A DNA stretch of 24,032 nt from contig JBDLKA010000053.1 of NCBI GenBank assembly GCA_039714075.1, positions 1 to 24,032 on the forward strand, in the 5' to 3' direction. Of the stretch, positions 5,238 through 22,947 are shown piece after piece. The notes below the pieces were generated by a model. It was not told where the DNA came from, did not search any database, and saw only the letters and a list, made by a program, of their open reading frames with translations. Both the position numbers and the translations under genes were made by a program. Positions within the stretch are counted from its first letter, which is position 1; the number at the start of each line of letters is the position of its first letter. The DNA comes from Candidatus Krumholzibacteriota bacterium (GTDB lineage Bacteria; Krumholzibacteriota; Krumholzibacteriia; LZORAL124-64-63).

Positions 5238-5279
5238 TCCAATCATGTCTCAATGCAACGCAAGGACCGGGAGCAGACA

Positions 5280-5747
5280 ATGAGCCAAACCGAAATGAAA
5301 ACCACAGCCGGCGCCCCAGATCGCGAGGGTTTTGCCATGGTGACCACCCTGTTGATCGTGCTGGTCATCAGCGTGCTTGCGGTGGGCGTGGCGTGGATCG
5401 CGGGGTCGGAAAAGAAGACGACCTTCGCCGAGTCGGTCCATGTGCAGTCGATCTATTCGGCCGATGCCGGGGGCGAGGCGGCCATCAACTTCTTGCGGAT
5501 GTCCGATATTCCTCCCCTGCGCATCGACACCGGCACGGGCCTGGTGCGGAGCCAGGCCGTCACGAACCTGCAGGGCTCCCAGACCTTCGATTACCGGGCG
5601 TTTTTCGTCATCAGGCGGGCCAGGCCCGGCTGGGGAGAAGATTATCTGGACTACGATTATCGCATTGCTTCCCACGGCAACGCCTCCCGTCTGGGGGAAA
5701 GCGGTGTGGAACTCGTGGTCAGTCGACTCTACAAAGAGGGCTATTAG
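5280..5747 (+). CDS. Type IV minor pilin, PilX-like
   Basis: G|FAMVTTLLIVLVISVLAVG lacks Glu5 (a PilX/GspK hallmark); 'SIYSADAGGEAA' resembles the PilX N-terminal A..AEAG motif; GGGAG RBS before ATG 5280. Confidence 0.78.
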   Translation: MSQTEMKTTAGAPDREGFAMVTTLLIVLVISVLAVGVAWIAGSEKKTTFAESVHVQSIYSADAGGEAAINFLRMSDIPPLRIDTGTGLVRSQAVTNLQGSQTFDYRAFFVIRRARPGWGEDYLDYDYRIASHGNASRLGESGVELVVSRLYKEGY

Positions 5748-5813
5748 TTAGATTCGGGGGATAATACGGCGAACCGAATTTCCGGCACGCCGATGAGGCA
5801 GGAGAGAAAGATC

Positions 5814-8597: not shown

Positions 8598-8636
8598 ATC
8601 CCGGTAGCGGGAACCGATACAGGAGGAATTGGAAAA

Positions 8637-9095
8637 ATGAAGAACTTCAAGCTGGCGATGATCTGTCTGGCGTTGGCGGCGACCGTCATGGCCGTGACCG
8701 ACGCCGAAGCGGGGCGAAAGAAAAAGCCCGCCAAGGGGGCTCGGACCGAAAAACCCGAGGAAATGAAGAAGCCCCGCCGCTTCGACAACTACCCGACCAT
8801 GGAATTCAGGGGCGGCATACTGACCAGGGACGCACATACGGGCTGGAAGATCGGGGATATGCCCCTGCATCTGAACAGCGAATGCGTGATCACCATGGAC
8901 GGCTCCGAAGTAGGAATGCTGGTCGAGGGCCGCGAGGCGGTCATCATGGGTGCCCGGATGGGTGAGGCGATCAGCGCCTATTCGATCCATGTTTCCCAGC
9001 CGGAATACAAGAACATCGGCAAGTCCATGTCGGACGAACCCAAGGAAAGAGGCCCGAACCCGAACGTCGGCAAGATCCTCAAACGGGCTGAATAA
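8637..9095 (+). CDS. Small secreted protein, possibly a DUF5666/OB-fold-like domain
   Basis: AGGAGG RBS, Sec signal ending AEA, Lys-rich linker, beta-rich core 'L..G..A.I.G......I.A..I.V'. Domain call is tentative. Confidence 0.6.
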   Translation: MKNFKLAMICLALAATVMAVTDAEAGRKKKPAKGARTEKPEEMKKPRRFDNYPTMEFRGGILTRDAHTGWKIGDMPLHLNSECVITMDGSEVGMLVEGREAVIMGARMGEAISAYSIHVSQPEYKNIGKSMSDEPKERGPNPNVGKILKRAE

Positions 9096-9112
9096 CAGCC
9101 CTGGCAAACATG

Positions 9113-9150
9113 AAAAAACGCCGGACCCAAACAGGGCCCGGCGTTTTTTT
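9113..9150. terminator. Bidirectional rho-independent terminator
   Basis: AAAAAACGCCGGACCC-aaaca-GGGCCCGGCGTTTTTTT: GC stem with one mismatch, flanked by A6 and T7 tracts, between convergent genes. Confidence 0.88.
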
Positions 9151-9163
9151 CCCTGCGGGCTGT

Positions 9164-9694
9164 CTAGAACTTCCAGTTGACGATGGGGAAGAACTTCAGT
9201 TTTTCCTTGTTCTTGATGATGTTGACGATACCGATCTGCAGACCGCTGTTCATGGTCTGGGTGATGTTCACGAATCCCAGCTGGAAGCCGCTGAACTCGT
9301 CGGCCGTGTTCCACCAGCCCCACTGGAAACCTTTTGATCCCACACCGGCCGAGTTGTAGAGACCGCTCTGGAAACCGGTGAATCCGCCCCGGGTGATGGA
9401 GATGAAGCTGTTCTGCCAGCCGGTGAACCCGCCGTCGGTGATGCCGACCAGGGCCCACTGCAGTCCGGTGACACTGCCCTTGTTGACGCCGACCAGGCTG
9501 ATGTCCAGGCCCGTCAGGTCGGTGTTCACGCCGTAGATCAGGCTGAACCGGAAAGCCTTGACCGCCTGGTCTTCACCGACGATCTGGATGGGGTTGAACA
9601 GGGAAAGATTGACGGGTCCGTCGGCCATGGCGGCCGAAGGCAGGATCGATCCAAGGGCCAGGACAATTGTGGCCACTGCGAGGATTTTCTTCAT
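9164..9694 (-). CDS. Exported GxQxGxxN-repeat protein (LA_2272/VC2662-like)
   Basis: Signal peptide ending AMA; ~15-aa repeats GLQWALVG, GWQNSFIS, GFQSGLYN, GFQWGWWN, GFQLGFVN, GLQIGIVN; ends FFPIVNWKF; AGGAGG RBS. Confidence 0.75.
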   Translation of the reverse strand: MKKILAVATIVLALGSILPSAAMADGPVNLSLFNPIQIVGEDQAVKAFRFSLIYGVNTDLTGLDISLVGVNKGSVTGLQWALVGITDGGFTGWQNSFISITRGGFTGFQSGLYNSAGVGSKGFQWGWWNTADEFSGFQLGFVNITQTMNSGLQIGIVNIIKNKEKLKFFPIVNWKF

Positions 9695-9751
9695 GGGGAA
9701 TCCCTCCTGGAAAAAAACCGGTTACAAATACCAACTTCAGCCGGGAAACTA

Positions 9752-11752
9752 TCACCGGTCCGGATTTTCTTCAAGGATCAGTTTCAGGCGCCGGACCTGT
9801 TCCTTCTGCCCCTCGGTCAAGCCGTGCAGGGCCCCGGCCCGGTCCAGGGCGGCGGCGGCCGCGGCGGGGTTGCCGGCCTGGAAGTTGGCCAGGGCCAGGT
9901 TGAACCAGCCGTTCACGTAAAAGGGATAATCACCGGTCAGGTCGGACAGGATATCGACCGCCAGTTCGGTCCGCCCGCTTTCCGCGTAGAGCGAGGCCAG
10001 GTTCGACCGCACCCGGAAATTGCCCGGGCTTCGCTGGTGGGCCTTTTCCATGAGGTCCAGGGCCCGCCCCTTGCGCCCCTGGAGATTCATGACCAGACCG
10101 CCGCGCAGATAGGGATAGGCCCAGCCCGGGTCCAGGAACGACGCCCGTTCGTAGGCGGCCAGCGCCTCGTTGTACTTTTTCATCTGTTCGTAGTTGCGGC
10201 CGATGCGGTAGGGAATCAGGCGGCTGGCCGGTTGCCGGGCCTGCGCCAGCTCGAGAGCGGCCAGCGCCTCGTCGTGGGCCCCGAGATCTTCCAGATACAG
10301 GGACAGATGAAACGGCGTGTCGGCCAGGCCGGGCCGCACCTCTTCCGCCTGTCGGCCCTTGGCCATGGTCAGGTCCAGGTCGCCGCGCTTGCCGGCCCGC
10401 GAAGCCTCGTGCAGATGGACCTGCCAGTGGACCTCGGCCTGGTCGAGGGCGGCCCAGCGGGGCAACAGGGCAACCGTCAGAAGAATGGCCACAGGCAGCC
10501 AGACCCATCGCCGCGCCCTTCCCCGGAACACCGCCACCAGAAAAACCGCCGCGTTGACGGCCAGCAAAGGAGCGACGGGCTGCCGGTAGCGCGAGGTCGG
10601 GAAAAACGGCAGCAGGCTCAGGAAGTAGGAACCGACCAGGATGATCATGATCCAGCGGGCGGTGCGCGGCAGGAACCGGAATCCCAGCAGCCCCAGGGCG
10701 GACAGCAGCACGAACGGAACCGGCAGTACCCACAACGCCGAAAATTGCGTCTTCCAGTAGTCGTAGCTGACGATCTGCGGCAGCTCGTAGCCGTTCCAGA
10801 AACGATAGGCCTTGCGTCCGTAGTGCAGGGGCATGGCGCCCAGGTTGTCGCGGAACCCGTGCCAGGCCCGGCGGGTGAGGATGCGCGAGACCTCGGATCC
10901 CTTGAGGTCGCGGCCCAGCTCGCGTTCGAGGGTTGTTTCCATGGAGGGATCGAATTCGGCCTGCGCCTCTTCCATCACCGGGGCGAAGATTCCCTTGTAG
11001 TCGTGCTGCTGGCCGATCAAAAGATTCACGCCGCCGTTGCTGGTCAAAAGGACAAAATCATCGGCGACGATCAGGTTGCGCAGGGTTGCCGGCGCCAGCA
11101 TCAACGCGCCGCCAAGGACGAGGGCGGCCAGGTTTTTCCAACGGACCGGCCGCGCCAGGGGCGCCTTCCACAGCAGAAGCGGAAGCCCCGCCAGCAACAG
11201 CAGAACGTTGCCCCGGGCAAGTCCGGTCAGTCCGGTCATCAGGCCGAGTACCAGCCAGTTGCCGATGGTGGGTTTGCCGGCCGCGCGAATAGCAAGCAAC
11301 CCGGTCAACAGGAACAGGGTTGTGACCAGGGTGGCCATCAGCAGGTTGCCGGCGTAGAAAACGGGCGCCCCGTAAAAGGCGAACAAGGCCGTACCCAGCA
11401 GGGCGGTGCCCCCGGCGTCGTCCGGAAGCAGCTTGCGGGTGAACCGGAACACCAGCCAGACGTTCAACAACGACATGCCCAGCTGAATGGTCAGCGCCTC
11501 GGGGCCGCCCACACCGAAGACCAGGTAGACAAGGGCCAGAAAGTGGGGGTACAGCGGCCCCATCCAGTAGGTTTCGTTCCAGCCCCAGTCGCCGGCCACC
11601 AGGCGCGTGGCCCAGTCATGGTAGGTTTCGCTGTCCAGCAGGGGGATTTCGCCCAGGTCGGTGCCGCGCAGCTGGAAGAAGAAGAACATCCGCACCGCGG
11701 CGGAAAAAAGCAGCAGGGACAACAGAAGGTGGTTGCGGGTGCGCGCTTCCAC
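9752..11752 (-). CDS. GT-C (ArnT/PMT-like) membrane glycosyltransferase with C-terminal TPR domain
   Basis: Multiple TM helices, DSETYHDWA first-loop motif, PLYPHFLA, SNGGVNLLIG, 'RYRQP' motif, followed by about 5-6 TPR-like repeats. Confidence 0.82.
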   Translation of the reverse strand: MEARTRNHLLLSLLLFSAAVRMFFFFQLRGTDLGEIPLLDSETYHDWATRLVAGDWGWNETYWMGPLYPHFLALVYLVFGVGGPEALTIQLGMSLLNVWLVFRFTRKLLPDDAGGTALLGTALFAFYGAPVFYAGNLLMATLVTTLFLLTGLLAIRAAGKPTIGNWLVLGLMTGLTGLARGNVLLLLAGLPLLLWKAPLARPVRWKNLAALVLGGALMLAPATLRNLIVADDFVLLTSNGGVNLLIGQQHDYKGIFAPVMEEAQAEFDPSMETTLERELGRDLKGSEVSRILTRRAWHGFRDNLGAMPLHYGRKAYRFWNGYELPQIVSYDYWKTQFSALWVLPVPFVLLSALGLLGFRFLPRTARWIMIILVGSYFLSLLPFFPTSRYRQPVAPLLAVNAAVFLVAVFRGRARRWVWLPVAILLTVALLPRWAALDQAEVHWQVHLHEASRAGKRGDLDLTMAKGRQAEEVRPGLADTPFHLSLYLEDLGAHDEALAALELAQARQPASRLIPYRIGRNYEQMKKYNEALAAYERASFLDPGWAYPYLRGGLVMNLQGRKGRALDLMEKAHQRSPGNFRVRSNLASLYAESGRTELAVDILSDLTGDYPFYVNGWFNLALANFQAGNPAAAAAALDRAGALHGLTEGQKEQVRRLKLILEENPDR

Positions 11753-11758
11753 GATCGG

Positions 11759-13072
11759 TCAGTCGCCGTCGATCAGCGACCGGGACAGGCGCAACAGGAT
11801 GAACTCGCTGTCGTCGGGGGTATCGGGCGGTCGTCGTCCGGTGCTCAGCGGGAAATTGTTGTCGTTGGCCACCAGCAGGGTGCGGTCGTCGATCACGGCC
11901 AGACTTTCCGGTGTGACATAGGGGAAGGAATAGTCTTCGCCCAGGCCCACGGCGCCGTTTTCGGACCGGGTCAGGTCCTGGGAATCCCGGATGTCCATCA
12001 GGTCGCAGACCAGGGTCTTGTTCAGGTTGCCGTCCTGGTCGAGATCCTCCAGGTCGATGCGATAGATCCGCTTGATTTCCGCGGTCAACCCTTCGCCCGG
12101 GTCGCGCTCGAGAACCAGGAACACCTGGTCGGTGACGGCCTCCAACGAAGCCAGACTGATGTCCTGACGATCGGCCCGGTAGAGCCAGAAAGCGCCGGAA
12201 AAACCGTGGCGCGCGGGATCGAATTCCAGAATGACACGCCGGGTGCGCTCGCTGTCGTCGCTCATGGGTTTTTCGACCGCGGCGTAGATCTTGTCGCCGG
12301 ACGCATTGCGCGCCAGGCCCTCGATGCCGCCGCTGCGCGGAAGATTGGCCAGATCGAGCCGCATTTTCTCATTGCGCAGGAAGCGCAGGTCCGGGTGATC
12401 GGGGGTGCGCAACACGGGCGAACCGCGGGAAAAAGGGCGCAAAGGGGGGACGACGGGAATCGGCAAAGGCTTTTCGAGGATGACCCCGTCGGGTCCGACG
12501 TGCAACATGGAGGGGCCGAATTCCTCGCCCACCCAGAACGAGCCGTCGTTCATGCGCACGAAGGACTCGGGATCGAAATCGGCCCCGGTCAAAGGCCTGC
12601 TGACGCTGTCACCCAGGGTGATGGCAAAGGGAATTATCCTGGCGGGATCGGACCAGTAGACGAACTCCGACACCTCGACGGGTCCGCCCTCGGTCGGGGG
12701 ATCATCCAGATCCAGATGCAGGTGGAACCAGCCCAGGGGATAGTCGGGGCTGTTGGCCATGGAGCCGAAGCCGTTGTCCTGCAGGGCTACGTACCGCCCG
12801 CCGTCACGGGGGATGAGCGAACTGATTCCCTGCACCGGCATATCGCCGAAAGGCAGCTGGCGGCCGTTGATTTCCGGATCCATGGCGATGCCGACCGGCG
12901 GGCTTCCGGGCAGGAAGGTGTCGGCGGGCAAAACGGCCCGGCCGATCAGGACGGCGAGCTTTCCGGAGCTTTTTTCGGACTTGGGTACACAGGCGGACAG
13001 GCCCAGCGCCAGGGCGACTATGGTCAAGCCGACCGCGGTCAGGCCGAAAATGCGCGATCTTCCAGTCAGCAT
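11759..13072 (-). CDS. Esterase-like activity of phytase family lipoprotein (beta-propeller)
   Basis: Lipobox LSAC; family motifs QGISS, DNGFGS, FDPES, EEFGP, GIEGLA, LVLERD, NDNNFP. Confidence 0.85.
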   Translation of the reverse strand: MLTGRSRIFGLTAVGLTIVALALGLSACVPKSEKSSGKLAVLIGRAVLPADTFLPGSPPVGIAMDPEINGRQLPFGDMPVQGISSLIPRDGGRYVALQDNGFGSMANSPDYPLGWFHLHLDLDDPPTEGGPVEVSEFVYWSDPARIIPFAITLGDSVSRPLTGADFDPESFVRMNDGSFWVGEEFGPSMLHVGPDGVILEKPLPIPVVPPLRPFSRGSPVLRTPDHPDLRFLRNEKMRLDLANLPRSGGIEGLARNASGDKIYAAVEKPMSDDSERTRRVILEFDPARHGFSGAFWLYRADRQDISLASLEAVTDQVFLVLERDPGEGLTAEIKRIYRIDLEDLDQDGNLNKTLVCDLMDIRDSQDLTRSENGAVGLGEDYSFPYVTPESLAVIDDRTLLVANDNNFPLSTGRRPPDTPDDSEFILLRLSRSLIDGD

Positions 13073-13149
13073 GAACTCCCCTGGGGGTTGGTCGGCCAGG
13101 ATTGATTATGGGGGACTGGCAACAATGCGGTATTGTATCACAGGCCCAT

Positions 13150-13162
13150 AAAATGACACACG
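13150..13162 (+). repeat. 13-bp direct repeat copy 1 (AAAATGACACACG)
   Basis: Identical to 13751..13763; ends 9 nt before the YdeI-like start. Confidence 0.7.
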
Positions 13163-13171
13163 GGAGAGGTT

Positions 13172-13744
13172 TTGGAAAAACTTCCGGAAATCTACCTCAG
13201 CGAACGGGACGATTGGCGGGACTGGTTGGCCGAAAACAACGCCGACAGCTCCGGAGTCTGGTTGATCTACTACAAGAAGCACACGGGGATCGCGCGAATC
13301 GCCTACGAGGACGCGGTCGAAGAGGCCCTGTGTTTCGGTTGGATCGACAGCACGGTGCGCCGTCTGGACAACCAGCGGTTCGCCCAGAAATTCGTGCCGC
13401 GCAGGTTGCGCAGCAACTGGTCGGGCCACAACCGGCGGCGGGCGGAAAATCTCATCGCCGCGGGATTGATGGCGGCCCCGGGAATGGAAAAAATCGAAGC
13501 CGCTCGCCGGAACGGCGAATGGGACAAGGCGCTGGAGGACAGGATGGATCGGCCGACGCCGCCCGAACTGGAAACTGTTTTGGCCGCAGACCCCAAGGCG
13601 GCGGCGGAATTCGACCGCCTGACCCCCACGCAGCGCAAATATTTCATCCACTGGATCAGCGAAGCCAAGAAACCGGAAACGCGGGAACGGAGAGCGGACA
13701 AGGCGAGGGCCATGCTGCGGGAGGGGAAACGGCCCGGGATGTGA
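13172..13744 (+). CDS. YdeI/OmpD-associated family protein
   Basis: WRDWLAEN, YEDAVEEALCFGWID, WS..NRRR and 'F..LTPTQRK...WI.EAKKPETRERR' motifs; GGAGAGG RBS before TTG. Confidence 0.92.
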   Translation: MEKLPEIYLSERDDWRDWLAENNADSSGVWLIYYKKHTGIARIAYEDAVEEALCFGWIDSTVRRLDNQRFAQKFVPRRLRSNWSGHNRRRAENLIAAGLMAAPGMEKIEAARRNGEWDKALEDRMDRPTPPELETVLAADPKAAAEFDRLTPTQRKYFIHWISEAKKPETRERRADKARAMLREGKRPGM

Positions 13745-13750
13745 GGGCCA

Positions 13751-13763
13751 AAAATGACACACG
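13751..13763 (+). repeat. 13-bp direct repeat copy 2 (AAAATGACACACG)
   Basis: Identical to 13150..13162; begins 6 nt after the YdeI-like stop and ends 17 nt before a TATAAT at 13781. Confidence 0.7.
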
Positions 13764-13784
13764 AACCGGGTAACAGCCCTTATA

Positions 13785-15365
13785 ATGAAGACCATTGCCA
13801 TCAATCCGAATTTTCCAGGGGACATCAGGACATTGAAACATCATCCCTTCAAAAAAAACGGTTCACCTTTTCTGGCTGCCGGGCTCCTGCTGACGCTTCT
13901 GTTGCTGGGTTCCTGTGACAATGAAACACCCACCATGTGCCCGACCGATGGGGTCGGCATTCTCGAAGGCTATCTGAAGGTTGCGGGCCAGGGAGTTTCC
14001 GCAACCATCGGTGCCCGTGCCCTGGAAGGACCCGACCCTGGGTCAATTTTCCGCAGGACCGTTTCCGATTCGACCGGCTGGTACCGCCTGGAGCTGCCGA
14101 CGGGACTTTATCAACTGGAGATAAATCCCGGCCTTTTCGGCAGAACCTCTCGCGAGCCATACGACACGATAAGAGTGCTGCCCAGGGTTTTCCGTTTTGA
14201 TATCGAACGCGGCCGGGCCGAGGTTCGCATTCAATTCCCCGAAGACCAGGATGGGGTCAGGTTCCACTTTCAGCTCTGGCGTGAAACCTATTTAATAATG
14301 AACCAGTCCGACAGGGTCGAGGGAGGGCAACTGGTTTTCGAGTATCCGATCCTGGAGCCCGGCGCCTATACCATGGAACTTAGCGGCGGAGACCTGATCG
14401 ACGGGTACTACCTGCCGGGCTTCACGGAATCTTCGGACGCGGACATTATCGAAGTCGATATCGCAAGCACATCGGTATACGAGGCTGATTTCAGTGACTC
14501 ATACGCGTCCATCAGCGGGAGTGTTACCGGCAGTTGGCAGGAATCGGGAGTATCGGGGAGACCCATCGTGGAAGCTGTTTCCACCGGTTTGAGGTGGAGC
14601 GGTTACACGAGGTGTGCCATTGAAGGCACGTTTACAATGGGATTCCTGGTTCCCCAGGCGGTCATCCTCCGATCGGAGAACAGCGGGGTGTCCCAATGGA
14701 TCGGGGGCGAAACCTCCGATACCGCCCGGGTATTCGATCTCCAGCCCGGCGACCGGATTGCGGGAGTGGAGGTGATCGAATCCGGAATCAAGGTTCTTCT
14801 CGATGGTCCGGGTGACCTTGTCTCGCACCATCCGGAGATCACCGTTCGGTCGGCGTCCGGCGAGGAATTTCATCCCCGGGGATTCGGGAATAATCCGTTT
14901 GCGGTCACCAATCTGCGGCCGGGACGCTATTTCCTGTTTGTGGACGGTTATTGTGGCGACGAGATCTGGGCCCACCAGTGGTACGGCGGGTCGGAGACGT
15001 TCGCGGGCGCCACCCCCATCGACCTGGCCGAGGGAGAGCTTGGCCGGATTGTGATGACTCTCGAACGGGGCGGCCGCATCGAAGGCAATCTTTTGCGGTC
15101 CGACGGAACCCGGCCGCTCACGATCCGGTTCGGCCTGTTTGATCCGACCGGCGAACCGGCCTGTTCCGGATGGGGCCAGTGGAGAGAGTTCGACGAAGGC
15201 CGCTTCGAGTTCCAGGGCCTTGCCGATGGCGACCATTATCTGGGTGTGCAGACCTGGGGCGATGATATCTGGTGGTATCCCGGAACCGGGGAATTCACCG
15301 AAGCCGTTCCGTTGACCATCGAAAACCATGCGGACCTGGCCGACGTCGATTGGGTGCTGCCATGA
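13785..15365 (+). CDS. Lipoprotein with repeated carboxypeptidase-regulatory/prealbumin-like beta-sandwich domains (paralog A)
   Basis: Lipobox LGSC; repeated 'D..G.Y.L.LP.G.Y', 'L.PG.Y' and 'WYPG/WYGG' modules. True start may be TTG 13833 because TATAAT overlaps ATG 13785. Confidence 0.7.
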   Translation: MKTIAINPNFPGDIRTLKHHPFKKNGSPFLAAGLLLTLLLLGSCDNETPTMCPTDGVGILEGYLKVAGQGVSATIGARALEGPDPGSIFRRTVSDSTGWYRLELPTGLYQLEINPGLFGRTSREPYDTIRVLPRVFRFDIERGRAEVRIQFPEDQDGVRFHFQLWRETYLIMNQSDRVEGGQLVFEYPILEPGAYTMELSGGDLIDGYYLPGFTESSDADIIEVDIASTSVYEADFSDSYASISGSVTGSWQESGVSGRPIVEAVSTGLRWSGYTRCAIEGTFTMGFLVPQAVILRSENSGVSQWIGGETSDTARVFDLQPGDRIAGVEVIESGIKVLLDGPGDLVSHHPEITVRSASGEEFHPRGFGNNPFAVTNLRPGRYFLFVDGYCGDEIWAHQWYGGSETFAGATPIDLAEGELGRIVMTLERGGRIEGNLLRSDGTRPLTIRFGLFDPTGEPACSGWGQWREFDEGRFEFQGLADGDHYLGVQTWGDDIWWYPGTGEFTEAVPLTIENHADLADVDWVLP

Positions 15366-17014
15366 TGGGGTTCAAGAGCGCACCAGGGGCGCCACCGCTG
15401 ATCCGGGGAACCCTGTTCCTGTTGTTGGGCGCGGCATTCATCATGAGTGGTCAGGGCTGTGACGAACCGGTCGACCTGTGTGACCCTCAGGTTCCAGGGG
15501 GCCGGATCCAGGGCCGGGTCCTTTCGGGCGGCCTGCCTCTGGATGCGTACGTTACGGCCGAGCTCATGGACGAGGAACATCCGAATTTCGGAAAGTTCCG
15601 GGCCGAACCGGACGAAACGGGACTCTATTCCCTCGATCTTCCTTTCGGTCGTTACATCTTCACCCTCCGTACTGAAGGGGGCCGCTATGACTATACGGCC
15701 TCCGGGATAAGCTACGGCCAGTTTCCTCCCGACACGGTATCGGTGCGTTCCGGAATCCGCACCCCGGACATCAATTTCGTCCTGGGAGGAGTGGCGATCG
15801 GTCTTGACGTTCCCGACTACCTGAACGACCAATACGGCCAGGTGATTCTTCACCGGCAGGATGATTACGATGGGGGAACTTGGGGACTGGTGACCACGGG
15901 CCGCGCGGAAATCGAGACCGGCAGATTCGAGGTGGATATCGCGGGCGTCCTTCCTGGAGATTACCAGGTCGAGGTTATATTGGGGTGCCTGAGATCCTAT
16001 TGCGGGGACATCAACGGCGGCGAACGCTTCTGGCTGCCGGCCACCCATGACCAGGCCGAGTCGCCGTTGTATACGGTCGCCCCCGATTCGATTTTGTCGC
16101 TCGACGAAAACATGCTCCAGGAACCCGCACGGATTGAAGGAAGGGTGTCGGGAGCCTGGCTGGACATGGGGATCGAACGGGAGCCGGTCGTATCGATCGT
16201 AACCGAGGACTCCCTTCTGGTCCTGAAGAGTTTCCATACGGACGAGGATGGGTTTTTTACGGCCGATTTCCTGGTGCCCGGACCGGTAAAAATATTGGTT
16301 TCCCAATTGGGAATAGACTACTGGATCGGGGGGCCGGATTTCGAGAGCGCCACGGTTTTCATGCTGGAATCAGGCCACACGATCACGGAAATCGAGCATG
16401 ACCAATGTGGAATCCATCTGGTGGTGGACGAAACAGGGCTTTCTTATTACAACGGATTCATTGAAATCTTCAACCCGGCAAATATATCCCAGGGGGTATT
16501 GGAATCCTCCTGGGGAAATACCGGCCGACACATCGGCATTCCCAACCTTTGGCCCGGCGAATTCCTGGTTCAGGTGAGTCCTGTTTCGTGGTCGAGGGGC
16601 ATCACGGAATGGAGACCCCAGTGGTTCGACCGGGCGGCTACCGTCGACCTGGCCCAACCGATCCAGCTGACCACAGGTGGACAAGTGGCGCGCCTGGACC
16701 TGGTGATGGAGGCGGGGGGAAAGATCTCGGGCCGGGTGGTGTCCGCAGACGGCCCGCTGGACTATTATGGGATCCAGCTCTATCCGGTCGACGATGAAGA
16801 CCCCTGGGCGGACAGGTTCTTTGGGGACGATACGTACCATCTAACGGGTCTGCCCGACGGCGATTATGTCATCGCGGCCAGATCGGGCATGATCGTCTCC
16901 CCGCTGGAAGGAATCCTCTGGTATCCCGGAACCTATGACCGGGCCGAGGCGCAGGTCATCGAAATCAGGGATGCTTCGGTGGTGGAAGGTGTGGACATCA
17001 TCATTCCCCAATAG
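15362..17014 (+). CDS. Probable lipoprotein with repeated carboxypeptidase-regulatory-like domains (paralog B)
   Basis: ATGA overlap with the upstream stop; hydrophobic signal then GQGC; colinear motif matches to paralog A along its length. Confidence 0.7.
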   Translation: MMGFKSAPGAPPLIRGTLFLLLGAAFIMSGQGCDEPVDLCDPQVPGGRIQGRVLSGGLPLDAYVTAELMDEEHPNFGKFRAEPDETGLYSLDLPFGRYIFTLRTEGGRYDYTASGISYGQFPPDTVSVRSGIRTPDINFVLGGVAIGLDVPDYLNDQYGQVILHRQDDYDGGTWGLVTTGRAEIETGRFEVDIAGVLPGDYQVEVILGCLRSYCGDINGGERFWLPATHDQAESPLYTVAPDSILSLDENMLQEPARIEGRVSGAWLDMGIEREPVVSIVTEDSLLVLKSFHTDEDGFFTADFLVPGPVKILVSQLGIDYWIGGPDFESATVFMLESGHTITEIEHDQCGIHLVVDETGLSYYNGFIEIFNPANISQGVLESSWGNTGRHIGIPNLWPGEFLVQVSPVSWSRGITEWRPQWFDRAATVDLAQPIQLTTGGQVARLDLVMEAGGKISGRVVSADGPLDYYGIQLYPVDDEDPWADRFFGDDTYHLTGLPDGDYVIAARSGMIVSPLEGILWYPGTYDRAEAQVIEIRDASVVEGVDIIIPQ

Positions 17015-17030
17015 GGGCAAGGGGGCAGTC

Positions 17031-18257
17031 GTGAAATACCTGATCATTCTGGCGGTTTTATTGGCCGTCATCCCCGGACCCGACCCGGCAAAAGCCGGAT
17101 CGGGAGCCGGCGGGATTGTTTTCTCCTTCAACACATCGGCCCGGTACGAGGGCATGGGCAGTGCCGGCGTGGGCGCGCCCTGGGGCGGCGCCACCAACCA
17201 CTGGGCCAACCCGGCCCAGCTGGCCTACCGCCGGGGGCTCCAGCTCGAGTGGTTCAGGTCGGAATTGGCGGCGGGTCTTGCTGATGACATCGTTCTGGAA
17301 AACCAGGAGTTTATTCTGGGAGTGGGAGGGGTCACCGTTCTCTGGGGCCGGACTCCGGCGAGCGGGCGCTACCTGGACATGGGATCCCAAACCGCCACCG
17401 ACGAGAACGGGCAACCGGTGGGCACTTTCCATTCCTACATGAAATCGGAATCCTACGGTTTGGCCGTGGACGTGGTTCAGGTGTTCGATTATTTCCAGTC
17501 CGGTTCGGAGGATCCCCTGAACCTGTCCCGTTACGGATCCCTTTCCTTCGGTTACGTCAATAAGGACTTCGAAGACAAGCTTTCGGGCGACAGTATTATC
17601 CAGGACCCGCAGGGCGCCAGCACGGGTCAGGCGAACACCCACGATTTCGGCTGGGTGGTCCGGGTGACGCCGGTGAATACGCTGGATACCGAAGATGCCA
17701 TCGGCTTTCTCCTGGGCGTGGCCTACGGATCATCCCTTCTCAACGGCGGCGACGAGGTCATCGTCCATGCCGATGCCGACCAGTCCGATCCCTTGCCGCG
17801 GGCCCATGTCAACGGCTGGTCCCTGCACGGGGAAATCGCTGTCGGCCGGCAGAATTGGCGGAAAAACACCTCGACAATCCTGGACAAACTCTATGACACC
17901 TTCAATCCCTTCCTGAGTCTGACCATTGCCGGCCAGACAAGCGTGCCGGGTTATGTTTGGGACAGGGATACCGGGGAATACATCTACAAAAAGGACACGT
18001 CCGGAGTTCAGGACGAAATCGGCAACGGCTGGGAGCTTGGCCTGGGCAACATTTTCTACCTGCGGCGCGGTCATGTTGAGGTAATTTACGCTGATATCGA
18101 TGAAGACACCGAGGGCTGGGGGATAAACGCCCAGGTGGGCGACATGTTCGGCTTCCGCTACGACAAGGCGACGGTTCCCCAAGCCAGCGGCCTACCCACG
18201 GTGGACAGGGAAACGTGGTTGGTCTGGATGAATCCCCTGGCATTCTGTGCGGACTAG
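17031..18257 (+). CDS. PorV/PorQ (FadL-like) outer-membrane beta-barrel protein
   Basis: GTG start with signal peptide MKYLIILAVLLAV; N-terminal SARYEGMGSAG...WANPAQLA matches the PorV/FadL 'ARxxGMGxA...NPAxL' signature; amphipathic strands and 'LRRG' near the C-terminus. Confidence 0.72.
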   Translation: MKYLIILAVLLAVIPGPDPAKAGSGAGGIVFSFNTSARYEGMGSAGVGAPWGGATNHWANPAQLAYRRGLQLEWFRSELAAGLADDIVLENQEFILGVGGVTVLWGRTPASGRYLDMGSQTATDENGQPVGTFHSYMKSESYGLAVDVVQVFDYFQSGSEDPLNLSRYGSLSFGYVNKDFEDKLSGDSIIQDPQGASTGQANTHDFGWVVRVTPVNTLDTEDAIGFLLGVAYGSSLLNGGDEVIVHADADQSDPLPRAHVNGWSLHGEIAVGRQNWRKNTSTILDKLYDTFNPFLSLTIAGQTSVPGYVWDRDTGEYIYKKDTSGVQDEIGNGWELGLGNIFYLRRGHVEVIYADIDEDTEGWGINAQVGDMFGFRYDKATVPQASGLPTVDRETWLVWMNPLAFCAD

Positions 18258-18281: not shown

Positions 18282-18824
18282 CTAGTAATACAGCGCCTTG
18301 ATCCCGCTCCAACTGGCCTCTGAAACCGGCACCTGACCCTCGTCGATGATGGTGTCGATCATGCCGGTGATGGCGGTCAAATCAAACCCGATCGACCCGT
18401 ATCGGATGGTCATGGTCCGGTCCAGCACCGCGTTGTAGGGCAGCCCGCCGGCCTGGGGGAACAGCTCGAACAGGGTCCAGTCGGGCGCCAGCAGGATGGG
18501 ATAGGTCACCCCTTGCGACGCGGCCCAACCCTGGACCAGGGGCTGCAGTTCCATGATGTCCACCGCGAGCACCGTCACGTTGTCGGCCCCGTAGACCTGC
18601 CAGATATCATTCTCCAGATGACCAGCCTCTTCGTTGCACCCCGGGCACCAGGTGGTGAAAAAATTCAGCACGATGATGTCGCCCAGGTGGTCGTAAAGGG
18701 AGCCGTCGCCTTCGACCAGGGCGGGCAGGGTGAAGTCTTCGGCGGTGTCGCCCAGTTCGTAGGCCGAACAGGCGGTCGAAACCACGGCCAGGGCGAGAAC
18801 AAGCGGAAGGGACGAACGACCCAT
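18282..18824 (-). CDS. Exported TlpA/ResA-like thioredoxin-fold protein (CPGC) with C-terminal SWSGIKALYY tail
   Basis: GGGGAG RBS, signal peptide, 'GDTAEDFTL', 'VLNFFTTWCPGC', cis-Pro 'GLPYNAVLD'. Confidence 0.88.
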   Translation of the reverse strand: MGRSSLPLVLALAVVSTACSAYELGDTAEDFTLPALVEGDGSLYDHLGDIIVLNFFTTWCPGCNEEAGHLENDIWQVYGADNVTVLAVDIMELQPLVQGWAASQGVTYPILLAPDWTLFELFPQAGGLPYNAVLDRTMTIRYGSIGFDLTAITGMIDTIIDEGQVPVSEASWSGIKALYY

Positions 18825-18875
18825 GGAACAACTCCCCGATTGATCGCGAAAATGATCGGATTGAGGCCTTGTTCC

Positions 18876-18908
18876 GAGTATATGAAGGTTCGGAGCAACT
18901 GCCAGGGG
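18876..18908 (-). promoter_or_regulatory. Conserved upstream motif copy 1 (CCCCTGGC-N9-GAACCTTCATATACTC on the minus strand)
   Basis: 24 identical positions with the same spacing as 22948..22980; contains TATACT with CTGGCA 17 nt upstream; 51 nt from the ATG. Confidence 0.75.
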
Positions 18909-18947
18909 CCGGGATTTGCGGTAGAATGCGGGCAGCTCGAAAAAACC

Positions 18948-18975
18948 ATGAAGAATTTTCCGCTCCACGCGTCTA
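18948..18975 (+). promoter_or_regulatory. Candidate autoregulatory ECF promoter
   Basis: ATGAAG-N16-CGTCTA about 50 nt upstream of the ECF sigma gene; CGTC -10 is typical of ECF promoters, -35 is atypical. Confidence 0.35.
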
Positions 18976-19025: not shown

Positions 19026-19559
19026 ATGACGATGTCCCGACCAACATCAACCGATCTGGCCTTTCGCGGGCTGGTCGACCGATACCTGGAGCGGGTCTAT
19101 CGTTATCTGCGCAATCTCACCCGCGACGAAGATTCGGCCAGGGAATTGGCTCACGAGACATTCCTGAATCTTCGCCGCCGTCTCGAGACGGGTGAAACCC
19201 CTTCCGAAGCCTACGTGTTCACCGCCGCGCGCAACGCGGCGCTTTCGGCCTGGCGCCGCCGGCAGAACGACAACCGCAAGCACGAGCTGGCGTCGGTCGA
19301 ACGGCCGGCCGGCAACCCGGCGAACTCGCCGACCTTCGAAACCGAACGCAAGGAGTTGCGCACGGCCCTGGAGGACGCTCTGGGAACCCTGCCCGAGGAG
19401 CAACGCTCGGTCTTCCTGCTTTCGGAAATCGAGGGACTGAAATACGGGGAGATCGCCGAGGCGATGGGAATTCCCGCAGGAACGGTGGCCTCGCGCAAGC
19501 ACCAGGCCGGACGGGCCCTGCGCGAAGAACTGGAAAGGATGGGTCATGCGTTGCCCTGA
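19026..19559 (+). CDS. ECF RNA polymerase sigma factor
   Basis: Region 2 (YLERVYRYL...ELAHETFL...ARN) and region 4 (LPEEQRSVFLL...GLKYGEIAEAMGIPAGTVASR); ~177 aa. Confidence 0.92.
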   Translation: MTMSRPTSTDLAFRGLVDRYLERVYRYLRNLTRDEDSARELAHETFLNLRRRLETGETPSEAYVFTAARNAALSAWRRRQNDNRKHELASVERPAGNPANSPTFETERKELRTALEDALGTLPEEQRSVFLLSEIEGLKYGEIAEAMGIPAGTVASRKHQAGRALREELERMGHALP

Positions 19560-20025
19560 GTTTCGCGAAGTCATGCGGTCGTTTCTGGACGGCGAGGTGG
19601 ACGAAGAGACACGCAAAACGGCCGTGTTTCATCTGGCCGAATGTGCCGACTGCGCCGCCCGGATTGAAGACAAACATTTCTGGGACGACGCCATCCGCAC
19701 GCACCTGGACCACGAACTGCCCGCCGGACTGCGCGAAGACATCCTGGGCGATCTGGACCATCTGAGCGGACGCGACCAATGGCGCGTGGTCTGGTGGGTC
19801 ATCCGGCGGGACCTTTCTAGGCCCAGGCAGTTGCTGCAAACCGCCGCGGTGGCCGCGGTGTTAATCCTGGCCGTGACCTACCTGCCGGTCTTCCGTTCGA
19901 ACGATGAACACAACGGGGCTTTCGAGCACGCGGGTCCCATCGTTCAGGTCGGTGAAGAGACGGCGAGGCAACCTGGAGAACCCGAACCCACCGCCCGGCT
20001 CACGCTGTCCGGGCGTATGATATAA
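19546..20025 (+). CDS. Zinc-binding (zf-HC2/ZAS) membrane anti-sigma factor
   Basis: MRC...FLDGE...HLAECADC (C-x25-HxxxCxxC), one TM helix (TAAVAAVLILAVTYL); overlaps the sigma stop. Confidence 0.88.
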   Translation: MRCPEFREVMRSFLDGEVDEETRKTAVFHLAECADCAARIEDKHFWDDAIRTHLDHELPAGLREDILGDLDHLSGRDQWRVVWWVIRRDLSRPRQLLQTAAVAAVLILAVTYLPVFRSNDEHNGAFEHAGPIVQVGEETARQPGEPEPTARLTLSGRMI

Positions 20026-20037
20026 GGAGGCGAAGTC

Positions 20038-20802
20038 ATGTTCCATCGCACCCTGATTTCCTGCCTGGCGATCGTGCTGGTCGCCGGCGCGGCCGGCGCG
20101 GCCGAACCCGTCGAGGTCCTGCTCAAGGGACACGACGAATCACTGACCGGATACTTGCGCCAGATCAGCGACGCCCGGTTCCTGCTGCAGGGCGACAACG
20201 TCTATCATGAATTCCCGGGCAACCAGATCGTCACGGTCGACGGTTCGGACGATATCCCGCAGTCGGTCCGGGGCAACGGCCGGCTCATTTTCTCCAGCTT
20301 CTACGAAAAAATCCTGCCCGGCGGCGACGTCGAGGTCTGGTCCCACAACCAGGTCACGAACGACGGCGTACAGGTCCTGACGGGCACCGACTGGGGCGCG
20401 GCCGCCTGGGAAGAGGAGCAGATCCGCACCATGGAGGTCTATGACAGCTTCAACCACAAGTTGCCGATGATGATCGTTCCACGCGGCGACGGAGGCTTCA
20501 CGGTGAAGGTGGACTTCATTGTTCCGGTGGCGCCGCGGGAGTCGCTGGGTCTGACCCTGAAGACGATCCGCAAGGGCCAGGCGCGTCGCACCGGCGACAC
20601 CTGGAGCTACACCTTCAACATCGATTTCAACGAAGACCGGTACATGACCCGGAAAATCGAACTGCCCGCGGGGGCGGAGATCGAAAAGACCTACGCCTGG
20701 TGCCGGAAGTTCGATATCGAAGGGCGGACGATCCTGATTTCGCAACGGTACTATCCCGCCCGGACCGCCGATCCGCTGACCGTGGTCTACAAGCTTCCCT
20801 GA
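20038..20802 (+). CDS. Secreted hypothetical protein, third gene of the ECF operon
   Basis: AAGGAGG RBS, signal peptide ending AGA, GC3-rich codons, beta-rich; no family recognised. Confidence 0.75.
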   Translation: MFHRTLISCLAIVLVAGAAGAAEPVEVLLKGHDESLTGYLRQISDARFLLQGDNVYHEFPGNQIVTVDGSDDIPQSVRGNGRLIFSSFYEKILPGGDVEVWSHNQVTNDGVQVLTGTDWGAAAWEEEQIRTMEVYDSFNHKLPMMIVPRGDGGFTVKVDFIVPVAPRESLGLTLKTIRKGQARRTGDTWSYTFNIDFNEDRYMTRKIELPAGAEIEKTYAWCRKFDIEGRTILISQRYYPARTADPLTVVYKLP

Positions 20803-20816
20803 AATTCGCCGCTGCC

Positions 20817-20838
20817 GAGGGCCCCCCGGGGGGCCCTC
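20817..20838. terminator. Perfect 22-bp GC palindrome at a convergent gene junction (possible terminator or stability hairpin)
   Basis: GAGGGCCCCCCGGGGGGCCCTC is its own reverse complement; no clear U-tract. Confidence 0.45.
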
Positions 20839-22897
20839 AACGCAGCAGTGTCAGCTTGCTGATGGCGGAAAACCCGCCGGCCCGAATTCTCGCCAGGTAA
20901 AGACCCGAAGGCAGGGCGCGGCCGGTGTCGTCGTTGCCATCCCATACCGCCAGCCCCGCCCCTTTTTCATGCTTTTGACCGGTGATCAACCGCCTGACCA
21001 GGCGGCCCCGGGCGTCGTGTATGTCCAGGCTCACGCGCCCCGTTGCCGGCAATTCAAAATGGATTTCGGTCCGCGGGTTGAAGGGATTGGGCCGGGCCTC
21101 CAGCCTCAGGTTGTTCGCGGCGCCGGGCAGATCTTCCACCGGCGCGGGATTCAACAGCAGTTCGTCGATGACCGCGGTCATCGCTTCGGGATCGTATTCG
21201 GTGCCGAAGTAGGCCACGCGCCCGCCCTGGTCGATCACGTAATCCAGCGGGAAGGGCGAAGTGGCGCCGGTCTGCCGGTACAGGTTGTAGGTCGCCTGCG
21301 TGTCCAGAAGGATGGGAAAGCTGACCTGGAACGCATCCAGGAAAATTTGCAGATCGGGGTCCGAGCTGCCCTGATCGTAAAGGCCCAGCACGGCCACATC
21401 GGTCTCGCTGTACTGCTGCCTGATCGCCGACTCGAGGTCCGAAAACTCCGGACCGCAAACAGGTCACCAGTTTGCGAAAAACGCCATGACCACCACCCTG
21501 CCGTAGTAGCTGGACAGCTTTTGCCGGGCGCCGTCGGTGTCGAAGTGGATGAATTCCGGGGCGACCTCGCCCAAGGCCAAAAGGGACGGACTGTCGTCGG
21601 CCTGGACTGGGAACGTGATTGATGATTCGTCGGTGTCGTCGGAAGTGATCTTGATGAAGGTGGCGTCGTAACCGGCCACCGGGTGGCTGAACCGGAGTCC
21701 CACATCGACGGTCCCGCCGACCGGAATGGCGAAGGGGCCGGGGTCCAGGACCGTGAAGTTGGCGCCGAAATCCTCGATCAGGGAAATGTTGACCGGCCCG
21801 CCACCCGTATTGCCGATGGTAAATGTTGTGTCGACCGTGGCCCCGACGGGCACGTTGCCGAAGTTGATCGATTCGACGGTCACCTGGATGTCGCCAAGGG
21901 TGGTGGGTCCGGGGCGATAGAGACGGAACCGCGACCAGTCGGCCACCGCCACCAGGCCCAGCCGCGCGTCGAGTCCCATGGCGCGCACGGGCGTGTCTTC
22001 GCCCCCGGCGGGAACCGGCAGGGCGGGGTTGCTGATGTCGAATGCCTCCACATCGTCCCAATCGGCGACGTAGACGATGTTCCCTGCGATTGCCGCGGTG
22101 ATGGCCAGTCCCGATGTGTTGATCGAGCTGACGAGTACCGGGGCAGTGGGGGTGGCAAGATCGAAGATGTCGATGCCCGCGCTGCCGCTGCAGACCACGG
22201 CGGTCGATCCTTTCACGACCACGTCAACGGCCGATCCAGAGGTGGGGAAACTGTTCAGATGCACCGGCTGTCCGGGGCTGGACACGTCTATCACGGCCAG
22301 GCCGCCGGCACCATCGGCCACGTAGGCGTATGATCCGTCCAGGGCCACGTCCCACGAGTTGACCAAAGTGGTAACTTCAGCGTCGGAAACCGGCACCAGC
22401 GGATTGGCGATGTTGACGATCTCCAACCCCTGATCGTGGCGGCAGGCATATATATAGTCACCCTGCATCTCGGCGCCCTCGTACGACGTTCCCAACGTTC
22501 CGTGCAGGGACAGGAACAGGGGCGCCGACGGGACGCTCACGTCAATGATAGCCAGCCGATCTTCCCGCGCCCCGCCGCAGGCCAAGCCGCCGCTGACGGC
22601 GCCGCGGTAGTACCTGTTGTAGGGGTGCCCGGGTGGTTCGTAGCGCCCCACCTCGACCGGAAAGTCGGGATTGCTAATATCGAAGATGGCCAGACCGCCG
22701 ACGCCGAACACGTAGGCGAAGTTTCCGGCCAATTCCACATCCTGGAGTTCGGCGAACCATGGTGGAGAGTATTGGCCGGCGTCTTCCAGTTGGTCGTCCT
22801 GGTCGATGGGGATTTGGGCCGCGCCCGGGTTTGAACCCAGGAAGGCGATTAGGCCGAGGATCAGAGCAAGGGAAAACCGGAAAGGTGTGCGGAACAT
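20837..22897 (-). CDS. Predicted secreted multidomain selenoprotein (686 aa, Sec478): LVIVD propeller + ASH/choice-of-anchor-D-like Ig + TlpA-like redoxin (UPVC) + FlgD-Ig sorting domain
   Basis: ORFs 21464..22897 and 20837..21397 are in frame and joined by TGA plus 22 sense codons (MAFFANW*PVCGPEFSDLESAIRQQYSETDVAVLGL). The TGA aligns with the first Cys of the neighbouring FFTTWCPGC; the redoxin fold continues to cis-Pro 'PFPLDYVID'; a hairpin follows the TGA; GGAGG RBS. Confidence 0.88.
21436..21466 (-). promoter_or_regulatory. UGA-Sec codon and bacterial SECIS-like stem-loop
   Basis: mRNA UGA-CCUGUUUGC-GGUCCG-GAGUUUU-CGGACC: 6 Watson-Crick pairs (extendable by G-U and A-U); the apical loop starts with G about 15-17 nt after the UGA. 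Confidence 0.75.
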
Positions 22898-22947
22898 GAA
22901 AGTCCTCCGCTTGGATACCGGAAAAATTTCGATTTGGGACCTGAATT

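Follow-up and report, generated by a model that had tools for sequence, protein, structure and literature searches.

A 24,032-nucleotide stretch of contig JBDLKA010000053.1 (assembly GCA_039714075.1; hereafter the window), from a Candidatus Krumholzibacteriota bacterium, carries on its minus strand a gene that, judging from comparative sequence evidence, almost certainly encodes a selenoprotein. The plus strand of the gene region (Table 1) contains many stop codons, and the reverse strand forms one frame interrupted once, by a TGA. Under translation table 11 this frame is rendered as two open reading frames (ORFs), one of 477 amino acids (21464..22897) and one of 186 amino acids (20837..21397). 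The original prediction, a note made from the letters of the window alone, had placed the gene at these coordinates as two in-frame ORFs split by one TGA at codon 478; this is correct, and to it we add the minus strand, which the note did not state.

Table 1. Positions in the window of the selenoprotein gene, its parts and the genes beside it
Feature	Position	Strand	Details
Selenoprotein gene	20837..22897	-	686 codons; ATG at 22897, TGA stop at 20837-20839
Shine-Dalgarno sequence GGAGGA	22903..22908	-	5 nt upstream of the ATG; read from the sequence
Probable Sec-type signal peptide	22817..22897	-	Residues 1-27; read from the sequence by eye
Seven-bladed LVIVD beta-propeller	21908..22795	-	Residues ~35-330; Pfam PF08309 and structural model
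Immunoglobulin (Ig)-like domain, HYDIN/VesB-like, choice-of-anchor D	21596..21889	-	Residues ~337-434
ResA/TlpA-like thioredoxin-fold redoxin domain	21152..21571	-	Residues ~443-582; active site W477-U478-P479-V480-C481
Selenocysteine codon TGA	21464-21466	-	Codon 478, the only internal stop; context VVVMAFFANW-U-PVCGPEFSDLE
Resolving Cys481 (TGC) of the UxxC motif	21455..21457	-	Invariant column in alignment A1
Bacterial selenocysteine insertion sequence (SECIS) hairpin GGUCCGG-AGUUU-UCGGACC	21436..21454	-	nt 13-31, counting the T of the TGA as 1; starts 9 nt after the TGA
C-terminal beta-sandwich (PNPFNP...LTLLR), FlgD-Ig / type IX secretion system (T9SS) type A sorting kind	20840..21106	-	Residues ~598-686
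Small Cys-type TlpA/ResA-like redoxin (FFTTWCPGC)	18282..18968	-	1.9 kb downstream of the selenoprotein gene; FFTTWCPGCNEE
Extracytoplasmic function (ECF) sigma factor	19026-19559	+	Between the small redoxin and the selenoprotein gene
zf-HC2 anti-sigma factor	19546-20025	+	
Secreted protein of 254 amino acids	20038-20802	+	No Pfam or NCBIfam family

Domain organization

The predicted protein combines four domains behind a probable signal peptide. The signal-peptide region has two arginines, a hydrophobic core (LALILGLIAFL) and then G-A-A ahead of Q28. The structure was modeled with AlphaFold2 from A1, which aligns 14 full-length homologues; the model has a predicted local distance difference test score (pLDDT) of 81 and a predicted template modeling score of 0.72, with pLDDT below 50 across residues 1-33. 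In it, residues 35-330 form a seven-bladed propeller, 337-434 an Ig sandwich, 445-582 a thioredoxin fold and 598-684 a C-terminal beta-sandwich. All 14 aligned homologues have the same layout as the window gene.

Family searches agree with the model. The propeller matches PF08309 (LVIVD) in five stretches with 121 bits against a gathering score of 20.2. The Ig-like domain matches PF22544 (HYDIN/VesB-like Ig) over residues 338-430 with 29.7 bits (cut-off 25.5), and the ASH Pfam family reaches only 14 bits, under its cut-off. The choice-of-anchor D family NF012200 scores 43.2 in the window protein against a cut-off of 45, and it is matched by all 14 family members. The redoxin is recognized by PF00578 (AhpC-TSA; 54.1 bits, cut-off 26) and PF08534 (Redoxin; 46.2 bits, cut-off 26.6) over residues 443-577, a span that straddles the TGA. 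Among NCBIfam models, the ResA subfamily is the nearest to the redoxin and choice-of-anchor D the nearest to the Ig domain. PF13860 (FlgD_ig) covers residues 620-671 with 32.4 bits.

The domain list in the original prediction, which named six to seven LVIVD blades, an ASH-type Ig domain, a Sec redoxin and a terminal FlgD-Ig domain, thus holds in substance. The model gives seven blades, and the Ig domain is better described as HYDIN/VesB-like or choice-of-anchor D than as ASH. The terminal FlgD-Ig domain is present and is recast here as a C-terminal domain of the type IX secretion type.

Two variants of this layout are seen among related loci. Five of them (L028-L030, L041 and L042) encode a second Ig-like domain between the redoxin and the C-terminal domain (A1 columns ~670-790), for a total length of ~770-810 amino acids. 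A clade labeled Gemmatimonadota/Glassbacteria (L088, L091, L094, L103 and L112) keeps the propeller, Ig and selenocysteine-redoxin domains, and its PNPFNP sorting domain is swapped for a tail of ~130 amino acids that ends in a Cys-rich ...CCFSW... motif.

Conservation of the in-frame TGA

The TGA is retained in every homologue examined. The 19 best matches found in 41 related genomes range from 84% down to 32% identity and represent two families and several genera, and each of them has a single in-frame TGA. The codon 478 column of A1 is TGA in all 14 homologues, and W477-U478-P479-x-C481-x-P483 is invariant. A wider public search, in which 185,579 species genomes were scanned with two peptide patterns, returned 77 loci. 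This sampling is not biased toward TGA, because one pattern had Cys at the selenocysteine site, where no TGA match is possible, and the other lay elsewhere in the domain. A tblastn search of the 77 loci with the redoxin part gave 103 high-scoring segment pairs over position 478, of which 89 have TGA and 14 have Cys codons, and every locus (77/77) has at least one family-type TGA pair. The Cys pairs come from a different gene, a small one immediately downstream (25-30% identity), and L079 has one further Cys paralogue beyond the stop. In a sample of 201 genomes from the phylum, all 39 matches covering residue 478 have one TGA, and the three TGA-less matches are fragments ending before that residue. 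The Cys481 codon is TGC at 47 and TGT at 14 of 61 distinct sites.

A genome-wide code with TGA as a sense codon was considered and rejected. The true stop codons of 58 complete family genes are TAG in 25, TGA in 21 and TAA in 12, and the window gene has a single internal TGA. TGA is therefore still used as a stop, which excludes a reassigned code.

Sequencing error at the TGA is excluded directly. Logan contigs from two runs of one marine-metagenome study cover 21464-21466, and no alternative letter is listed. The first run may be the source sample of the assembly and hence not independent; the second represents a related strain, in which a base three positions from the TGA differs synonymously. 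No RNA runs holding the stretch are listed, a result that is uninformative either way.

A SECIS hairpin under codon-level constraint

The hairpin that follows the TGA (Table 1) folds on its own with a free energy of -11.7 kcal/mol, a value equaled by 4 of 200 shuffles. The consensus model for bacterial SECIS elements, as given in a 2026 review of prokaryotic selenoproteomes that covers 119 selenoprotein families, has a loop of 3-9 nt carrying a G within its first two nucleotides and a stem of 4-16 bp (PMC13188914). Its further limits are 16-37 nt between the UGA and the loop and a minimum free energy of -7.5 kcal/mol or lower (PMC13188914). The window hairpin agrees with this model in loop (AGUUU, 5 nt), stem (7 bp), spacing (exactly 16 nt) and energy.

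Because the hairpin lies over the codons for G-P-E-F-S-D-L, conservation of the amino acids could by itself look like conservation of the RNA. Codon use argues otherwise. Across the 61 sites, serine at +8 is always TCG (48/48, against 23% of serine codons gene-wide), alanine at the same position is always GCG (13/13, against 29%) and glutamate at +6 is always GAG (48/48, against 54%). Glycine at +4 is GGT in 39 of 44 cases, against 19% gene-wide. Proline at +5 is CCG at 57 sites, the remaining four (CCC) being a clade with a shifted hairpin. Proline at +1, which lies out of the stem, varies as freely as in the rest of the genes (CCG 26, CCC 20, CCT 9, CCA 6).

The closing pair of the stem occurs as G.U (47 sequences) or as C-G (9 sequences), and the switch is made by a coupled change of Glu to Gln and Ser to Ala (alignment A2, columns 19 and 25). 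Here a change in the protein appears to have been driven by a constraint on the RNA. Paired cells make up 86.4% of the stem alignment, and none of 500 shuffles attains either the pairing value or the covariation score.

Selenocysteine machinery

The window genome, an assembly of 260 contigs that is 92% complete, contains selA (448 bits), selB (328 bits), selD (364 bits) and a selenocysteine tRNA (68.5 bits), each above its curated cut-off. The tRNA is also called by ARAGORN, as tRNA-SeC (anticodon tca). SelD is likewise a selenoprotein in this genome, its gene having an in-frame TGA at the classical site, SAG-U-AAK (L010, G000:C31:20863-21777, minus strand), so the organism carries at least one textbook selenoprotein gene. 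In the sampled phylum, selA exceeds its cut-off in 192 of 201 genomes and in all 125 high-quality ones, and the use of selenocysteine looks like a phylum-wide trait. All 22 genomes that bear the gene also have selA, a co-occurrence that cannot discriminate because selA is present in 192 of the 201 genomes overall.

A second secreted selenoprotein is encoded in the same genome (L047 ~780-1617, G000:C18:11779-12616). Behind a signal peptide it carries a redoxin (VVGYG-U-AGC), and it shares its C-terminal domain (PNPFNP...LTLVK) with the window protein. Similar frames of ~300 amino acids, with one TGA each, occur in at least eight related genomes.

Four independent lines of evidence (the machinery, the conservation, the continued use of TGA as a stop and the SECIS hairpin) agree on selenocysteine. 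The original prediction had proposed that selA, selB, selC and selD be sought in the genome, that homologues be compared at position 478 and that the TGA be traced in reads. The genes and the tRNA are all in the genome, homologues keep TGA with conserved flanks instead of Cys, and the TGA stands in the Logan contigs of both runs.

These results leave a vanishingly small chance that the TGA is a true stop, whether in a pseudogene, through a sequencing error or between two genes encoding a 477-amino-acid propeller-Ig protein and a 186-amino-acid downstream protein. Translation table 11 does yield exactly these two ORFs, and public gene calls list both pieces. Yet the redoxin domain (443-577) spans the TGA, so the downstream ORF would be without an active site. 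The 89 sites that keep the TGA come from loci under several phylum labels, and their flanks are conserved. There is also a hairpin whose conservation extends to the choice of codons, alongside a full selenocysteine machinery, and the TGA recurs in contigs of two runs.

Active site and likely chemistry

The redoxin domain belongs to the TlpA/ResA superfamily, and it is not an orthologue of ResA, TlpA, StoA or DsbE. Its best relative by sequence among solved structures is Bacillus subtilis ResA (3c71, 1st9; E 2.3e-12 for 3c71), which shares the fold, aligns WCPHC on WUPVC and is an exported protein, as the window protein probably is. U478 aligns with the catalytic first Cys of this ResA motif and with that of WCAAC in P0171, a Cys-type relative. 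Unlike ResA, TlpA, CcmG and StoA, the window protein has selenocysteine in place of Cys, is fused to propeller, Ig and sorting domains and shows no link to cytochrome c maturation genes.

The same selenoprotein could instead act as a peroxidase of the peroxiredoxin or glutathione peroxidase kind, with its selenol reducing peroxides outside the cytoplasm, a role we consider quite unlikely. In favor of this role, selenols reduce peroxides well, AhpC/TSA is the highest-scoring Pfam family and is accompanied by a weak GSHPx match, and 11 of the 14 family members show weak PrxQ matches. However, the peroxidatic motif P-x-x-x-T/S-x-x-C(U) is absent: residue -3 is Ala in the window protein (FFANWU), each of the 61 sites has Ala or Gly there, and this absence of the T/S-x-x-C(U) signature weakens the peroxiredoxin reading. 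The motif present is of the thioredoxin type, W-U-x-x-C. The nearest relatives of solved structure are ResA and other thiol-disulfide oxidoreductases, and the ResA subfamily model is matched by all 14 members.

A role in binding or transferring a metal or metalloid at the UxxC site, such as copper in the manner of Sco/TlpA-type chaperones, mercury, arsenic or selenium and tellurium species, is very improbable. TlpA/Sco-type folds do include copper-handling proteins. Several prokaryotic selenoproteins listed in the review are metal-binding as well (PMC13188914). Against such a role, the fold has no conserved set of His or Met ligands, its invariant residues are those of the redox motif (W, U, P, C and P), and no metal-transport genes adjoin the gene in the window or in L130, a related locus described below.

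We consider it probable that the protein is an exported redox enzyme of the thiol-disulfide type with a propeller-Ig substrate module.

Export and the C-terminal domain

The window genome encodes the T9SS components SprA (472 bits summed) and PorU (467 bits), both above their cut-offs. Some 48 further frames have at their end the same domain as the window protein, similar to the C-terminal domain of PorU itself. A C-terminal domain shared by many frames, together with SprA and PorU, is the usual pattern of T9SS cargo. Within the family, 9 of the 14 members match TIGR04183 (E <= 0.001; best E 7.9e-10), 8 of the 14 match the C-terminal region of PorU, and the C-terminal piece of one homologue passes PF18962 at 27.8. 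It is fairly likely from these matches that the protein is T9SS cargo.

The selenoprotein may alternatively stay in the periplasm, with the FlgD-Ig domain serving as a structural or binding module and with the redoxin kept reduced via DsbD/CcdA, as are TlpA, ResA and CcmG. This is an unlikely outcome, though one with several points in its favor. The sorting domain of the window protein scores slightly under the curated T9SS cut-offs, and one clade is wholly without this domain. A DsbD_TM protein (187 bits) is encoded elsewhere in the genome, with no genomic link to the selenoprotein gene, and the small TlpA-like neighbor is conserved. The TIGR04183 and PorU matches of other family members stand against a periplasmic location, as do the many frames that share the domain in a genome with SprA and PorU above cut-offs.

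A Foldseek search with the whole model ranks PorZ first (5m11, E 2.7e-13), with generic propellers of seven and eight blades and a YVTN propeller from an archaeal S-layer (1l0q) next. Like the window protein, PorZ has beta-propeller domains followed by a C-terminal beta-sandwich. It differs in that the TM-score is low (0.3), identity is 10% and PorZ has no redox domain or selenocysteine. Because the TM-scores are low, the search says only that this is a surface-type propeller protein.

Genomic neighborhood

The small Cys-type redoxin downstream of the selenoprotein gene probably starts at M49 (18824) and has a lipoprotein-like signal (...VSTAC). In the closest relatives, its orthologue lies directly downstream of the selenoprotein gene; in the window, three genes on the opposite strand stand between the two. 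Counterparts of the small protein in another family of the class are selenoproteins in their own right (FFATWUPTC). The small TlpA-like neighbor is a candidate redox partner or relay for the selenoprotein.

The three-gene block (19026-20802) is convergent with the selenoprotein gene and is not at the equivalent position in relatives. Type IV pilus genes cluster elsewhere in the window, at 4650-8597 on the plus strand, and include those for a prepilin-type N-methylation protein (4650-5237) and a PilY1-like protein of 934 amino acids (5793-8597). The region 9824-18257, also on the plus strand, contains large ORFs (1093, 526, 580 and 440 amino acids) with no or almost no Pfam match.

Locus L130 contains an array of six tandem selenoprotein genes within 7 kb (7666-14741; G028:C1:107666-114741). 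Two encode propeller-Ig-selenocysteine-redoxin proteins, and four encode small selenocysteine-containing TlpA-like proteins of the FFATWUPTC type, each ending in W..KALY. After the array, the other strand encodes a protein with two thioredoxin domains, an FlgD_ig protein and a LysR regulator.

Family distribution and public annotation

The family is widespread yet unrecognized in uncultured marine bacteria. By their record titles, the closest loci (83-57% identity) come from Candidatus Krumholzibacteriia or Krumholzibacteriota. More remote loci (26-50%) are labeled Neomarinimicrobiota/Marinimicrobia, Gemmatimonadota, Glassbacteria, Calditrichaceae, Ignavibacteria and 'Fibrobacteraceae', labels of metagenome-assembled genomes (MAGs) that are only as reliable as the binning of their submitters. 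Within the phylum the gene is patchy, occurring in 22 of the 201 sampled genomes and in two of nine families.

Public annotation divides these proteins at the catalytic residue. In a search of a 5.8-billion-sequence collection, the closest 102 listed proteins include the 477-amino-acid ORF of the window itself, and 101 of them are 401-525 amino acids long with a query cover of 44-69%. This partial cover means that the public relatives end at the TGA; those that bear a name are listed as 'hypothetical protein'. The original prediction that standard gene callers would split the gene in two is thus borne out by these 101 truncated relatives.

A second search was a full HMMER pass with residues 330-686 over 1.84 billion representatives, from which the best 150 rows were considered with the best stretch per protein. 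These rows include pieces that end at residue 477 (such as P0136, P0187, P0222 and P0072) and pieces that start just past it (such as P0125, of 186 amino acids, P0184 and P0259). In three proteins among them, the best stretch crosses the selenocysteine site. Two of these, P0212 and P0255, were rejected as Cys forms of the architecture, being unrelated tandem-redoxin proteins. P0171 is a Cys form of 332 amino acids with the redoxin and C-terminal domains and with neither propeller nor Ig domain (WCAACGPELSDLE).

No Cys version of the four-domain form was found in the 77 loci, the 201-genome phylum sample, the closest listed proteins or the best 150 HMMER rows. The case for its absence is strong but not absolute, because a single stretch per protein was considered in 150 rows, many of which are large repeat proteins.

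Relation to known selenoproteins

Redoxins with a UxxC site are an established kind of selenoprotein. The predicted UxxC families listed in the review include a thiol:disulfide oxidoreductase that is peroxiredoxin (Prx)-like, a thiol-disulfide isomerase-like family and a Redoxin family (PF00578, cd02966, PF08534) (PMC13188914). 'Prx-like 1/3' selenoproteins also appear in the Global Ocean Sampling (GOS) study, where Prx-like 1 has 225 selenocysteine forms and 2,740 Cys homologues (PMC2398784). The same source describes 'Prx-like' forms as abundant in the ocean and mentions unnamed fusions on short reads (PMC2398784).

The listed Prx-like and Redoxin selenoproteins, as they are described in these sources, resemble the window protein in having selenocysteine first in UxxC, in the AhpC-TSA/Redoxin (TlpA-like) thioredoxin fold and in having been predicted from a conserved TGA with a bacterial SECIS hairpin. 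They differ in that they are described by one domain, whereas the redoxin of the window is the third of four domains in a secreted protein of 686 residues. The separation rests on these descriptions, and some listed representative could be a piece of the window family. Other listed selenoproteins that act outside the cytoplasm include DsbA-like and DsbG-like proteins, a thiol:disulfide interchange protein, a TonB-dependent receptor of the FCYXU type and the ExtKL cytochrome (PMC13188914).

No entry in Table 1 of the review mentions propellers, LVIVD repeats or T9SS domains, and the review's text does not use 'propeller', 'signal peptide', 'secreted' or 'periplasm' (PMC13188914). Full-text literature searches return nothing that joins selenoproteins with LVIVD or selenocysteine with Krumholzibacteriota, and the supplements of primary surveys may tabulate fragments. 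Searches joining selenoproteomes with Marinimicrobia return nothing relevant, and those joining selenocysteine with type IX secretion return a paper in which, going by its listing, the terms are unconnected.

The original prediction had also offered the architecture as one not recognized as described. That claim stands for the four-domain fusion and needs narrowing for the UxxC redoxin, which on its own is already a selenoprotein kind listed in the review (PMC13188914). The four-domain, probably surface-displayed and selenocysteine-only architecture appears to be undescribed. The recoding and the chemistry are classical; the novelty lies in the architecture, in the apparent lack of a Cys form, in the probable location at the surface and in a mis-annotation that is systematic.

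Proposed function and significance

The best explanation of these data, and a very probable one, is a single gene of 686 codons in which UGA 478 is recoded by way of the hairpin and whose product is a four-part, exported and T9SS-displayed selenoenzyme acting on thiols and disulfides. SelB and Sec-tRNA(Sec) would read UGA 478 as selenocysteine, steered by the 7-bp hairpin with its AGUUU loop. The protein would then cross the inner membrane through the Sec pathway, and the T9SS (SprA, PorU) would carry it across the outer membrane for display on the cell surface or release. The selenolate of U478 would attack a disulfide or another oxidized chalcogen substrate, and C481 would resolve the resulting selenenylsulfide. 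The propeller and the Ig domain may select, bring or hold the substrate. Reducing power may come from the small TlpA-like neighbor and DsbD while the protein is periplasmic, or from external reductants once it is outside.

Several observations weigh against this interpretation. The covariation in the hairpin comes from a single pair, the other stem pairs being invariant or, in some clades, unpaired, and many sequences lack the outer two stem pairs. At the 4 sites of a divergent clade, the hairpin is shifted in register (CCGC-GGUC-GCGG) and, at -6.5 kcal/mol (z 0.15), folds like shuffles. An Rfam scan around the TGA (E <= 10) returned no SECIS family and four chance-level matches (to microRNA, small nucleolar RNA and long non-coding RNA families), a null that is uninformative because bacterial SECIS elements are diverse. 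For the C-terminal domain of the window protein, TIGR04183 gives 22.2 (cut-off 23) and PF18962 gives 16.5 (cut-off 27). The redoxin misses the NCBIfam cut-offs for ResA (56.4 against 170), TlpA (23.3 against 230), StoA (33 against 210) and DsbE; it lies so far below the ResA and TlpA equivalog thresholds that the substrates of those proteins are not transferable to it. Finally, DsbD/CcdA supplies reductant to the periplasm alone, so a surface location leaves the source of reductant unexplained.

A more far-reaching proposal, which we put forward only tentatively and regard as doubtful, is that the window protein is the founding example of an obligately selenocysteine-dependent, T9SS-exported family of cell-surface redox enzymes. 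Such a family would extend across uncultured marine lineages labeled Krumholzibacteriota, Marinimicrobia, Gemmatimonadota, Glassbacteria and Calditrichaceae. Its propeller-Ig module would present an external oxidized substrate to the selenol, which would be recycled by environmental reductants, for example sulfide or thiols, no membrane-bound reductase being within reach. Recycling of this kind would explain the lack of a Cys version of the architecture. The tandem arrays of up to six selenoprotein genes in some genomes would, under the same proposal, suggest a dedicated extracellular redox relay based on selenium.

The gene is also an instance of dual coding, in which the same nucleotides specify the peptide motif GPEFSD and the hairpin, and in which the E-to-Q and S-to-A changes travel together and preserve a base pair. 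More than 100 database relatives are cut at the catalytic residue by public annotation, so that users see a propeller protein without a known function and miss the enzyme. A family model with a flagged selenocysteine position would mend many MAG annotations together. The family also increases the selenium requirement of uncultured marine groups that are abundant. If the selenoenzyme does work on the cell exterior with no Cys alternative, it would offer a clean natural case for the advantage of selenium over sulfur where a dedicated reductase is absent.

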